Below are positions 16,250 to 50,311 of a stretch of 64,000 nt of DNA, one piece after another (position 1 is the first letter of the stretch; each line of letters begins with the position of its first letter). The position numbers and the translations under genes were made by a program. The stretch comes from Escherichia coli (GTDB lineage Bacteria; Pseudomonadota; Gammaproteobacteria; Enterobacterales; Enterobacteriaceae). The DNA lies in NCBI RefSeq assembly GCF_022846255.1, contig NZ_AP025682.1. The stretch is one strand, 5' to 3'. The notes below the pieces were generated by a model. It saw only the letters and a program-made list of their open reading frames with translations. It was not told the DNA's origin and did no database searches.

Positions 16250-17284
16250 ATGGAAATTCGCATAATGCTATTTATAGTAATGATGATGGTTATGCCTGTG
16301 AGCTATGCGGCATGTTATAGTGAGTTATCTGTTCAGCACAATTTGGTTGTTCAGGGGGATTTTGCACTTACTCAAACACAAATGGCGACCTATGAGCATA
16401 ATTTTAATGATTCGTCATGCGTGAGTACAAATACTATCACACCTATGAGCCCGTCGGATATTATTGTTGGACTTTATAACGATACCATTAAATTAAATTT
16501 ACATTTTGAATGGACCAATAAAAACAACATTACGTTGTCAAATAATCAGACCAGTTTCACCAGTGGTTATTCGGTGACGGTGACACCTGCGGCCAGTAAT
16601 GCAAAAGTGAATGTTTCTGCGGGGGGCGGGGGTTCAGTGATGATTAATGGAGTTGCGACATTATCCAGTGCTTCATCATCGACACGCGGGAGTGCCGCAG
16701 TACAATTTCTACTGTGTTTATTAGGTGGTAAGTCATGGGATGCATGTGTAAATAGCTACAGAAATGCATTGGCACAAAATGCAGGTGTCTATTCCTTTAA
16801 TCTGACATTGTCATACAACCCGATAACCACAACCTGCAAACCGGACGATTTATTAATTACGTTAGAGAGTATTCCCGTTTCACAATTACCAGCCACAGGT
16901 AACAAAACAACAATAAATAGTAAAAAAGGGGATATTATTCTGCGTTGTAAAAATTTATTAGGTCAACAAAATCAAACATCACGGAAAATGCAGGTGTATT
17001 TATCAAGTTCTGATTTGTTAGCCGGCAGTAACACGATCCTGAAAGGTGCAGAAGATAATGGAGTCGGATTTATGCTTGAAAGCAATAGTTCGCCAGTCAC
17101 ATTTTTAAATATCACTGATAACAGCAAAGGGTACACAAATTTAAAAGAAATTGCGGCGAAGTCAAAAATTACAGATACAACGGTCTCAATTCCAGTAACT
17201 GCCAGTTACTATGTTTATGATAAAAATAAAGTAAAATCTGGTGCAATACAGGCAACCGCATTAATCAACGTGAAATACGACTAA
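16250..17284 (+). CDS. yehA: fimbrial adhesin-like protein YehA
   Basis: 344 aa, signal peptide, last gene of the yeh cluster. Confidence 0.8.
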   Translation: MEIRIMLFIVMMMVMPVSYAACYSELSVQHNLVVQGDFALTQTQMATYEHNFNDSSCVSTNTITPMSPSDIIVGLYNDTIKLNLHFEWTNKNNITLSNNQTSFTSGYSVTVTPAASNAKVNVSAGGGGSVMINGVATLSSASSSTRGSAAVQFLLCLLGGKSWDACVNSYRNALAQNAGVYSFNLTLSYNPITTTCKPDDLLITLESIPVSQLPATGNKTTINSKKGDIILRCKNLLGQQNQTSRKMQVYLSSSDLLAGSNTILKGAEDNGVGFMLESNSSPVTFLNITDNSKGYTNLKEIAAKSKITDTTVSIPVTASYYVYDKNKVKSGAIQATALINVKYD

Positions 17285-17340: not shown

Positions 17341-17367
17341 CCCCCTCATGATGAGGGGGCTTTTTTT
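17341..17367 (+). terminator. intrinsic terminator after yehA (CCCCCTCATGATGAGGGGG + T7)
   Basis: Perfect GC hairpin followed by TTTTTTT; the rcnB stop codon (17366-17368, minus) lies within the T-tract. Confidence 0.6.
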
Positions 17368-17704
17368 AGCGATGATAAAAAATCTCACCGTCGTAGGCTT
17401 TAATGATTTTACCGTCGGTGTCGCTGATCAACACGTACGCGCCACCCATATAGGTCCAGTGCGTCCCGGCATCAGGCGCGGGCAGGTTACGTAACTGCCA
17501 CTGCTTAATGTTGTACTCATCGGTACGGTACATTTCTGGTACGGTGTCACCTGGTTTGAAATGCTTAAAGTCAGCAATGAAACTGCTTAACTCATACTTA
17601 GAAATTCCCGAGGTATTGGTCGAACCCGCGGTGGCTGGTGCGGCCCAGGCGGCACTGGTAACCAGCAAAAGCGCACCCAGCAACATCTTATTTTTAATGG
17701 TCAT
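17366..17704 (-). CDS. rcnB: periplasmic Ni/Co homeostasis protein RcnB
   Basis: 112-aa product starting MTIKNKMLLGALLLVTSAAWA (signal peptide); the longer 172-aa ORF in the track is an upstream extension. Confidence 0.9.
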   Translation of the reverse strand: MTIKNKMLLGALLLVTSAAWAAPATAGSTNTSGISKYELSSFIADFKHFKPGDTVPEMYRTDEYNIKQWQLRNLPAPDAGTHWTYMGGAYVLISDTDGKIIKAYDGEIFYHR

Positions 17705-17922: not shown

Positions 17923-18747
17923 TTATCGCATTATGCCCATGAAGCCATGTACGCCCATATACACACCAACTAAGCCAATCAACAGACTGGAAAAATAGGG
18001 AGCGCGTTTAGCGAGAGTGTTAAATCCGCTCCAGCGTTTTGCGACCTGCTGAACGCTGATTGCTGCGCCAACGCCTACGGTGACAAGCGTTAACGCCAGG
18101 CCGAGGCTGAAACTGACGACCAGTGTTGCGCCCAGTGTCAGGGCTTTCAACTGAATGCAAATCAACAGCACGGTAATTGCTGCCGGGCAGGGGATAAGGC
18201 CACCGGTTAAGCCAAATAGCAAAATTTGCCAGTTGGTGACCTCTCTACCATCAAAGCGTCGTTTAATGTCATTGGCATGGGCTCGTGCATGGGCATCCTG
18301 ATACTCGCCATGTTCGTGATGGTGATGATGTCCATGGTCGTGGTGATCTTCGTGATCGTGGTGATGATGCTCATGATCATGCTCGTGCATATTCTCCAGC
18401 CAGTTGCGTTCGCCGCGCCAGGTACGCCAGAACATCCAGAACGCGGTGCTAATAATGATCACTGCGGAAATCAACTGGAGCCACGGTTCTGCTGATTGAG
18501 CAGTAAAGCGTTTGCTGATCACCATCCCGCCAAAGGCAATTAACCAGACCACTGCGGTATGCGAAATAGTTGCTGCCAGTCCGAGCATCACCGCCTGTTT
18601 AATGGTGCCTTTGATGGCGATGATAAACGCCGCCATCATCGCTTTTGAGTGCCCCGGTTCCAGGCCATGAAGCGCACCAAGTAAGATGGCGCTGGGGATG
18701 AAGAACCAGGCGTTTCCTTGCTGAAGAAGTGTTGTAAATTCGGTCAT
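17923..18747 (-). CDS. rcnA: nickel/cobalt efflux transporter RcnA
   Basis: 274 aa membrane protein with a His-rich loop (HEHDHEHHHHDHEDHHDHGHHHHHEH). Confidence 0.95.
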   Translation of the reverse strand: MTEFTTLLQQGNAWFFIPSAILLGALHGLEPGHSKAMMAAFIIAIKGTIKQAVMLGLAATISHTAVVWLIAFGGMVISKRFTAQSAEPWLQLISAVIIISTAFWMFWRTWRGERNWLENMHEHDHEHHHHDHEDHHDHGHHHHHEHGEYQDAHARAHANDIKRRFDGREVTNWQILLFGLTGGLIPCPAAITVLLICIQLKALTLGATLVVSFSLGLALTLVTVGVGAAISVQQVAKRWSGFNTLAKRAPYFSSLLIGLVGVYMGVHGFMGIMR

Positions 18748-18784: not shown

Positions 18785-18819
18785 TACTCCCCCCCAGTAC
18801 CTGATACTACCCCCCAGTA
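18785..18819. promoter_or_regulatory. two RcnR operator sites (TACT-G6/C7-N-AGTA type) in the rcnR-rcnA intergenic region
   Basis: TACTCCCCCCCAGTA (18785-18799) and TACTACCCCCCAGTA (18805-18819), matching the published RcnR G-tract operator pattern. Confidence 0.7.
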
Positions 18820-18867: not shown

Positions 18868-19140
18868 ATGTCTCATACAATCCGTGATAAACAGAAACTG
18901 AAAGCGCGTGCCAGTAAGATTCAGGGCCAGGTCGTGGCGCTCAAGAAAATGCTCGACGAGCCGCACGAATGCGCTGCAGTTTTACAACAGATTGCTGCTA
19001 TCCGTGGCGCGGTGAACGGTCTGATGCGGGAAGTGATTAAAGGTCATCTGACGGAACACATCGTTCACCAGGGGGATGAGCTAAAACGTGAAGAAGATCT
19101 GGATGTCGTTCTGAAGGTGCTGGATTCATATATCAAATAA
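18868..19140 (+). CDS. rcnR: Ni/Co-responsive repressor RcnR (CsoR/RcnR family)
   Basis: 90 aa, [29 protein letters not shown]; divergent from rcnA. Confidence 0.95.
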
Positions 19141-19229: not shown

Positions 19230-19360
19230 AACCAAACGACTCGGGGTGCCCTTCTGCGTGAAGGCTGAGAAATACCCGTATCACCTGATCTGGATAATGC
19301 CAGCGTAGGGAAGTCACGGACCACCAGGTCATTGCTTCTTCACGTTATGGCAGGAGCAAA
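19230..19360 (+). promoter_or_regulatory. TPP (thiamine pyrophosphate) riboswitch in the thiM leader
   Basis: CGACTCGGGGTGCCCTTCTGCGTGAAGGCTGAGAAATACCCGTATCACCTGATCTGGATAATGCCAGCGTAGGGAAGTCACGG matches the thiM aptamer (thi-box CUGAGA ... ACCUGAUCUGGAUAAUGCCAGCGUAGGGAA); the AGGAG SD just before the ATG is sequestered by the expression platform. Confidence 0.9.
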
Positions 19361-19362
19361 CT

Positions 19363-20151
19363 ATGCAAGTCGACCTGCTGAGTTCAGCGCAATCTGCGCA
19401 CGCGTTACACCTTTTTCACCAACATTCCCCTCTTGTGCACTGTATGACCAACGATGTGGTGCAAACCTTTACTGCCAATACCTTGCTGGCGCTCGGTGCA
19501 TCGCCAGCGATGGTTATCGAAACCGAAGAAGCCAGTCAGTTTGCGGCTATCGCCAGTGCGTTGCTGATTAACGTTGGCACACTGACGCAGCCACGAGCGC
19601 AAGCGATGAGTGCTGCCGTTGAGCAAGCAACACGATCACAAACGCCCTGGACGCTTGATCCGGTTGCGGTTGGTGCGCTCGATTATCGCCGCCGTTTTTG
19701 TGTGGAACTTCTGTCCCATAAGCCAACCGCCATACGTGGTAATGCTTCGGAAATCATGGCATTAGCTGGCGTTGCTAATGGTGGACGGGGAGTGGATACC
19801 ACTGATGCCGCAGCTAACGCGATACCCGCTGCACAAACACTGGCACGGGAAACTGGCGCAATCGTCGTGGTCACTGGCGAGGTGGATTATGTTACCGATG
19901 GACATCGTATCATTGGCATTCACGGTGGCGATCCGTTAATGACCAAAGTGGTAGGAACTGGCTGTGCACTATCGGCGGTTGTCGCTGCCTGTTGTGCGCT
20001 ACCAGGCGATACGCTGGAAAATATCGCATCTGCCTGTCACTGGATGAAACAAGCCGGAGAACGCGCAGTCGCCAGAAGCGAGGGGCCAGGTAGTTTTGTT
20101 CCACATTTCCTTGATGCGCTCTGGCAATTGGCGCAGGAGGTGCAGGCATGA
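19363..20151 (+). CDS. thiM: hydroxyethylthiazole kinase
   Basis: 262 aa; downstream of the TPP riboswitch; 4-bp overlap with thiD. Confidence 0.95.
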
Positions 20152-35498: not shown

Positions 35499-35585
35499 AA
35501 AAAATAAGCCCGTGTAAGGGAGATTACACAGGCTAAGGAGGTGGTTCCTGGTACAGCTAGCATTTTATGGGTTATGTTTTTCAGC
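35499..35585 (-). ncRNA. cyaR: CyaR (RyeE) Hfq-dependent sRNA
   Basis: Minus strand reads GCTGAAAAACATAACCCATAAAATGCTAGCTGTACCAGGAACCACCTCCTTAGCCTGTGTAATCTCCCTTACACGGGCTTATTTTTT, matching CyaR including the terminator hairpin and U-tract. Confidence 0.85.
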
Positions 35586-35669
35586 GAAACGGATGATAAC
35601 CTTAATAAATGCAGCTGTATGTGATCGGTTTCTAAGAATTTTCCATCCGGGAAAAATAATCGAAATTAA

Positions 35670-49663: not shown

Positions 49664-49805
49664 CGGAAAAGCCCCTCCCGAGGAAGGGGCCTTAAATAAG
49701 GAAAGGGTCATGATGAAGTGGATCATCATCGTGGTGCTCTTAGTGATTAGCTACCCAGCATACTAAGACTACCAGGGCGGGGGAAACCCCGCTCTACCCT
49801 CACTC
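49664..49805 (-). ncRNA. Sib-family antisense sRNA (antitoxin RNA); boundaries approximate
   Basis: Antisense to the ibs ORF; minus-strand terminator hairpin CCCCTTCC-TC-GGGAGGGG followed by CTTTTCC at about 49664-49690. The 5' end is estimated from the usual Sib length of about 140 nt. Confidence 0.45.
49710..49766 (+). CDS. Ibs-family type I toxin, 18 aa (MMKWIIIVVLLVISYPAY)
   Basis: Short hydrophobic ORF with SD AAGGAAAGGG; Ibs family signature MMK...LLVIS..AY. A or B assignment not attempted. Confidence 0.7.
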   Translation: MMKWIIIVVLLVISYPAY

Positions 49806-49991
49806 CTGAAAGTATGCCTTCACGGTCCAATTGTCAATCCGCAGACTTTGCAGTCTGCGATCCTGCCAGCAAATATTCTTTGCGAGTCGTTACGCAATAA
49901 TCACACTTGAAACTATTTTATCCGCAAGTCAGCGATAGACTGCATACAGGGCGAAAGGAGGTAAGCCGAAGATTTCAGCGGGACGCTGAAA

Positions 49992-50133
49992 CGGGAAAGC
50001 CCCTCCCGAGGAAGGGGCCTTAAATAAGGAAAGGGTCATGATGAAGCTACTCATCATCGTGGTGCTCTTAGTCATTAGCTGGCCAGCTTACTAAGACTAC
50101 CAGGGCGGGGGAAACCCCGCTCTACCCTCACTC
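49992..50133 (-). ncRNA. Sib-family antisense sRNA, second copy; boundaries approximate
   Basis: Same hairpin and terminator, offset by about 328 bp from copy 1. Confidence 0.45.
50038..50094 (+). CDS. Ibs-family type I toxin, 18 aa (MMKLLIIVVLLVISWPAY)
   Basis: Second copy within repeat unit 2; same SD and context. Confidence 0.7.
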   Translation: MMKLLIIVVLLVISWPAY

Positions 50134-50311
50134 CTGAAATTATGTCACTCCGCCCTTAGTGTCAATCGACGGCTCTCCGTTCTTGCGAGGCGAATAGCAA
50201 AATTTTCTGCGCCGCCGGGCCTAATTCTGAAAGTTTCTTCGTTTGCTCTTATTTCATTATTGCAATCGGTATGATACCGGACCTCAATAATTCTCTAAGA
50301 AAGGATTTCTT

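Follow-up and report, generated by a model that had tools for sequence, protein, structure and literature searches.

The window analyzed here, a 64-kb stretch of Escherichia coli DNA, carries an rcnA coding sequence accompanied by the other genes and sites of the rcn locus, and the features of interest are collected in Table 1. The initial annotation had named the gene rcnA, and the family searches supported this name. The protein matched the Pfam NicO family (PF03824) over residues 13-273 with an E-value of 1.4e-69 and 235.1 bits (cut-off 27.7), and the NCBIfam model NF007454 (PRK10019, 'nickel/cobalt efflux transporter') over residues 1-274 with 558.6 bits (cut-off 195). When the window gene was compared by megablast with complete E. 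coli genomes, it was matched in 5365 of 5426, and 61 were without a match. These matches were nearly always single-copy, chromosomal and annotated as rcnA, with a top identity of 99.9% to a RefSeq rcnA. It is thus virtually certain that the window protein is RcnA. One O157-type copy was found on a record labelled plasmid, at least one genome had two rcnA-matching places, and the gene was disrupted by an IS3-family element or reduced to its first 111 nt, next to yehA, among the matches H180 (strain 81EVA) and H60 (strain ZF31).

Table 1. Features of the rcn locus, positions being those of the window
Feature	Position	Strand	Basis or remarks
rcnA coding sequence, 274 residues plus stop, NicO-family Ni(II)/Co(II) efflux protein	17923-18747	-	ORF, Pfam, NCBIfam
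rcnB (yohN), periplasmic accessory protein, 112 residues, downstream of rcnA	17366-17704	-	Pfam RcnB 7.3e-19
rcnR, Ni/Co-responsive repressor, 90 residues, divergent from and upstream of rcnA	18868-19140	+	Pfam Trns_repr_metal 3.5e-21; NCBIfam equivalog RcnR 197.3 bits, cut-off 138
Two RcnR operator sites, rcnA-rcnR intergenic region	18785-18799 and 18805-18819	-	Exact TACT-G6-N-AGTA matches; shuffles expect 0
Whole central hydrophilic loop of RcnA, residues 110-172, between two three-helix halves; predicted cytoplasmic	18232-18420	-	Hydropathy segmentation
His-rich tract HEHDHEHHHHDHEDHHDHGHHHHHEH, residues 121-146 of RcnA	18310-18387	-	Of its 26 residues, 17 are His and 8 Asp/Glu
Conserved motif EYQDAHARAHA, residues 148-158, C-terminal end of the loop, where a short helix begins	18274-18306	-	Alignment and model
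VNTR-19 (TR7 / O157-19) forward-primer site	18430-18465	-	1 mismatch in the window; 0 in O157:H7 SS17
VNTR-19 reverse-primer site	18184-18212	+	3 mismatches in the window; 1 in O157:H7 SS17

The sequence TACT-G6-N-AGTA is the consensus of the RcnR operator (PMC7055735). Since rcnA, rcnR, the two operators and rcnB are all in place, the window holds an intact rcnR-rcnAB system, and the annotated gene order at rcnA/rcnB in O157:H7 SS17 is the same. In E. coli K-12, the gene occupying this locus is the same, and its product RcnA (YohM) was described by Rodrigue et al. 2005, as referenced in PMC5183578 and PMC7055735; it is from this orthologue that Ni(II)/Co(II) efflux and resistance are known, through the citing papers PMC5183578, PMC7055735 and PMC3391293. 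The K-12 and window genes were 98% identical, for DNA and protein alike, both proteins have 274 residues with a 27-residue His tract, and the K-12 neighbors (rcnR, the operators and rcnB) match those of the window. Within the tract, the K-12-type allele (L009) differed from the window by the three substitutions E122G, H125Y and D134H, with a few more elsewhere in the protein.

Around this locus, a TPP riboswitch (Rfam RF00059, 71.2 bits) was detected at 19232-19328 (+), between rcnR and a thiM ORF starting at 19363. On the other side, a yehA-like fimbrial ORF at 16250-17284 (+) is convergent with rcnB, and a GC-rich hairpin and, after it, a T run were located at 17341-17359 (+), between the end of this ORF and that of rcnB (17366, -); by its sequence, the hairpin looks like an intrinsic terminator for both convergent genes. 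Elsewhere in the window we found two tandem SIB antitoxin RNAs (RF00113) at 49695-49837 (-) and 50023-50165 (-), with 137 and 141 bits, and the CyaR sRNA (RF00112) at 35502-35587 (-), with 100.7 bits.

The His-rich tract and the central loop of RcnA

The sequence HEHDHEHHHHDHEDHHDHGHHHHHEH occurs exactly once in the window. Its His content is 17 of 26 residues, against 6 of 248 in the rest of the protein (binomial probability of about 1e-22), and the next most His-rich stop-free stretch of 26 residues, searched in all six frames of the 64-kb window, contained 9 His. The enrichment of the tract is therefore far beyond chance, as expected from the initial annotation, which had pointed to an extreme His-rich loop in RcnA. 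The interval it had assigned to the loop, 18226-18400, contained the tract but was wider, spanning residues 116-174 and thus nearly all of the central loop. The coding DNA of the tract is an imperfect mixture of the His codons CAY (CAT/CAC) with the Asp/Glu codons GAY/GAR (GAT/GAC/GAA/GAG). Tandem Repeats Finder reported periods of 9-21 nt with 73-90% match for the window tract, and a search for perfect arrays of any 3-18 nt unit found none above two copies, and no GACCAC unit.

Hydropathy segmentation divided RcnA into N-terminal and C-terminal hydrophobic blocks, parted by the central loop; of its 63 residues, 7 are Lys/Arg, 15 are Asp/Glu and 19 are His. Two helices on, the loop at residues 237-248 contains 4 Lys/Arg, and those on the opposite side contain none. 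From this Lys/Arg distribution and the positive-inside rule, the central loop is predicted to be cytoplasmic, and with it the His tract, flanked by Lys/Arg-rich segments; the same side has been predicted for the loop of homologues (PMC11247825). An AlphaFold2 model of RcnA was built on 33 diverse homologues, with a mean pLDDT of 81.7 and a pTM of 0.73. It shows a long helix to residue 120, coil from 121 to 151 and a short helix at 152-166, after which the second membrane half follows. Block-mean pLDDT values were 52-66 for residues 121-150, and in this model the His tract is predicted to be a disordered linker joining the two three-helix halves. In the motif EYQDAHARAHA, 10 of the 11 residues were invariant among 10 aligned E. 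coli alleles, and A158 was nearly so.

A search of PDB sequences with RcnA found no homologue of solved structure. The best PDB matches, to sirohydrochlorin cobaltochelatase (E of about 1e-4), spanned query residues 53-148, including the His tract, and many weaker ones aligned the tract with a chain terminus; these are most likely His-run or tag matches, uninformative on fold. When the AlphaFold2 model was compared with the PDB by Foldseek, nothing was found at E < 1, ZIP and ZnT entries included, and there is thus no structural support from this search for homology to other metal transporters. Transporters of the CDF (ZnT/CzcD-type) and ZIP families have disordered His-rich cytosolic loops between transmembrane helices, which are thought to capture or sense metal, and the length of these loops likewise varies among homologues. 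Their folds and families are nonetheless unrelated to RcnA.

To place the loop within its family, a HMMER scan of 1.84 billion cluster representatives was used, and it yielded 5,100 RcnA relatives; loop statistics were taken from the 72 of the best 150 that had both protein halves, the loop being defined as the equivalent of E. coli residues 120-159. Loop length among these 72 representatives was 6-242 residues (median 47.5). The median His count was 12, with at least 5 in 93% and at least 10 in 75%; the window RcnA has 19 His in residues 120-159. The motif DAHxxAHA recurred in most of the 72. Judged from these sequences, the His-richness observed here is a nearly universal hallmark of the family, while loop length and sequence appear free to vary. 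Conservation was also found in the membrane parts: among 33 homologues with 34-78% identity, H27, L29, E30, P31, G32, H33 and K35 (HGLEPGHSK segment), as well as H63, were conserved in at least 90%, whereas P186 and C187 (LIPCP segment) were invariant. The RcnA of cable bacteria belongs to the same family and has the same central His-rich loop, predicted to be cytoplasmic; there it has 100-123 residues with 33-53 His, whereas E. coli is given as having 67 residues with 17 His (PMC11247825).

In some RcnA homologues, a conserved insert of about 100 residues was observed within the His-rich loop, flanked by His runs (P0121, P0124, P0125, P0129, P0131, P0134, P0138, P0145, P0154, P0164, P0166, P0173 and P0246). 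Across the matched stretches, homologue P0121 shares 73% identity with E. coli RcnA. The insert is not of low complexity, and contains motifs such as IDTGHG..ELSVFEDGVPPRWRL ... GYLES..IPEPHEF ... HGGHVHSYD. A Pfam scan of the insert gave no family; from its sequence, it may be a folded metal-binding domain.

Length variation of the loop in E. coli and its use in typing

We next considered the loop across E. coli genomes, in a census made of two evenly spaced samples of 60 rows each plus identity bands. In the evenly spaced sample of the 5,365 matches, rcnA measured 825 bp in 51 of 59 full-length genes, the others being 804, 822, 822, 840, 849, 852, 858 and 870 bp long, and in the sample for the loop amplicon (282-bp query), 52 of 59 had the modal length. 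Over this amplicon, 668 of 5,363 genomes (12.5%) fell below 95% identity, which at a query of 282 bp implies multi-codon indels. The alignment of 10 E. coli alleles, comprising length variants and the K-12 type (267-289 residues), placed every gap column within the His tract, and the membrane parts were nearly invariant. The variation in loop length among strains that the initial annotation had anticipated is therefore real, and all of it lies within the loop. At the protein level, the best 120 clusters were from E. coli/Shigella wherever the source was named; the 116 that were parsed contained 43 distinct loops of 20-53 residues, with 27 residues in 71 clusters. The window allele has this modal 27-residue loop in a 274-residue protein, a length common to about 86% of genomes. 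The alleles with 44 and 53 residues showed apparent duplications of blocks of 9 to 18 residues.

Some individual alleles had further peculiarities. The long-loop alleles L006 (E-1246) and L007 (C21) stop one codon early (...GIM instead of ...GIMR), with an annotated CDS 3 nt below the aligned span. In strain FDN-24 (L010), the gene is annotated as a frameshift pseudogene with a 1-nt deletion within the His tract, possibly a sequencing error. This deletion was the sole exception among length differences that were otherwise all multiples of 3 nt, and a phase-variable contingency locus, switched on and off by slippage, was rejected on these grounds.

The O157:H7-type alleles are different, having a perfect (GACCAC)n array that encodes (Asp-His)n, and an additional Asp-Asn-Glu. 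Searched at E <= 1e-100, the O157 allele matched 255 genomes, and in a 60-row sample of these the amplicon lengths differed by exact multiples of 6 nt. Upon direct inspection, n was 6 (EDL933), 7 (SS17), 8 (86-24), 9, 10 and 11, with identical flanks. Copy number thus differs even among closely similar O157-type alleles. Unlike this perfect 6-bp array with n = 6-11, the window tract is not a true tandem array. Since the window allele has no perfect array, its sequence suggests that it is comparatively stable, and hypervariability would reside mainly in other alleles, above all those of the O157 type.

Both the His-rich loop and its length polymorphism are, like the gene itself, already known and ordinary for rcnA. 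The PulseNet MLVA typing locus VNTR-19 of E. coli O157:H7 is the same rcnA stretch as the window loop, as found by mapping the primers printed, together with a range of product sizes, in PMC8461963. Each primer mapped uniquely, and the pair flanks the loop, with an in-silico amplicon of 282 bp in the window and 315 bp in SS17, the latter within the printed range. The locus is also listed as TR7 (O157-19), with a 6-bp repeat unit (PMC3768571). In Salmonella, the loci STTR5 (Typhimurium) and SENTR5/SE-5 (Enteritidis) in yohM are known from the literature as a strain-variable 6-bp repeat, CACGAC, encoding (His-Asp)n in the orthologous loop (PMC5183578, PMC3391293). The Salmonella arrays are longer than those of E. 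coli, and STTR5 alleles with 8-14 repeats predominate (PMC5183578). In Klebsiella pneumoniae, MLVA locus 27 is a hexanucleotide repeat in a putative rcnA with 0-19 copies, and its unit is CATGGT, which encodes a dipeptide other than that of E. coli (PMC3948817). Outbreaks of E. coli O157:H7, Salmonella and Klebsiella are routinely typed by means of this loop polymorphism.

A candidate metal-capture loop with tolerated length changes

The accepted view is that this segment is a low-complexity loop binding metal, and the mechanism is described as not settled: RcnA might export metal or chelate it through the loop (PMC11247825). We consider it highly probable, as the overall explanation, that the window encodes RcnA with a polymorphic metal-capture loop in which slippage is tolerated. 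The imidazole and carboxylate side chains of the loop would bind cytoplasmic Ni/Co, so that metal becomes locally concentrated where the transporter opens to the cytoplasm, and the loop would then hand the ions to the conserved His, Glu and Cys of the membrane part (H27, E30, H33, H63 and C187). This would resemble the function proposed for His-rich cytosolic loops in CDF and ZIP transporters, and a cytoplasmic capture role is somewhat favored. For the polymorphism itself, the pattern of the alleles points very strongly to in-frame changes driven by slippage. Short CAY/GAY repeats of similar sequence encode the tract, so that replication slippage and unequal recombination would add or remove whole codons, with the highest mutability wherever a perfect (GACCAC)n array exists. 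The in-frame changes would be tolerated because function is expected to rest on the composition of the loop rather than on its exact sequence, and slippage together with this tolerance would account for a loop length that is polymorphic in E. coli, from 20 to 53 residues.

Other origins and placements of the signal were weighed against this reading. A plus-strand ORF of 89 residues at 18226-18495 does exist mechanically, starting at the very coordinate where the initial annotation began the loop, and the PDB sequence matches to the tract were mostly tagged constructs, so that the signal might be thought to belong to that ORF or to be a His-tag-like artefact of cloning or assembly. Yet the NicO match (1.4e-69) covers the minus-strand frame end to end, and 5365 genomes carry this same gene natively on the chromosome, which goes against an artefact. 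The antisense ORF is rich in Met, Val and Ile, as a mere reverse reading of the CAY/GAY (His/Asp) codons, and nothing supports its status as a gene; it was rejected as the source of the signal, and the chance that either version holds is negligible. It is also very improbable that the loop lies on the periplasmic side, in which case it would pass metal to, or take it up from, the periplasmic partner RcnB. Although rcnB lies directly downstream of rcnA and its product is described as periplasmic, the positive-inside rule assigns the loop to the cytoplasm (7 Lys/Arg border it, 4 are found on the next loop of the same side and none across), and PMC11247825 predicts the cytoplasmic side for homologues.

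With the loop placed in the cytoplasm, its function and the meaning of its length can be read in other ways. The second-ranked reading, which we consider unlikely, is that the loop is mainly a cytoplasmic Ni/Co sponge that gives tolerance by sequestration, its length setting the buffering capacity. The growth of the loop to 100-123 residues in cable bacteria, and to as many as 242 in other homologues, would suit such a role; however, the nearly invariant H27, E30, H33, K35, H63, P186 and C187 of the six-helix core, conserved among homologues with 34-78% identity, fit a transport path and not an anchor, one membrane protein with a few bound ions would provide little buffering, and both the published name and the annotation are those of an efflux protein. 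Ranked third, and more doubtful, is the proposal that the length variation is adaptive, with repeat copy number tuning Ni/Co efflux or sensing to the niche, for instance in cattle-associated O157. Copy number does vary inside the O157-type group (n = 6-11), the clustering of Salmonella STTR5 alleles in the mid-range suggests functional constraint (PMC5183578), and metals have been speculated to impose selection on the STTR5-type repeat (PMC3391293). On the other hand, purifying selection against extreme lengths would by itself also be expected to produce that mid-range bias, one length is common to about 86% of the E. coli genomes, which come from a wide range of hosts and lineages, and the changes are all in frame with no on/off switching, the single frameshift being a 1-base deletion in one assembly.

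Returning to the metal-capture loop with tolerated slippage, its variability in E. coli is very uneven, with a common 27-residue allele that has no perfect repeat set against the shifting alleles with perfect arrays. As a long shot, the length of the RcnA loop may even be a selectable tuning knob, in which in-frame slippage would produce a heritable Ni/Co efflux capacity or set-point on which lineages are selected. If true, the VNTR-19 / STTR5 typing marker would be a functional polymorphism of metal homeostasis and not neutral noise. The natural series of alleles with 20-53 residues offers ready-made variants for probing the role of the His tract, be it a metal funnel, a sponge or a sensor.
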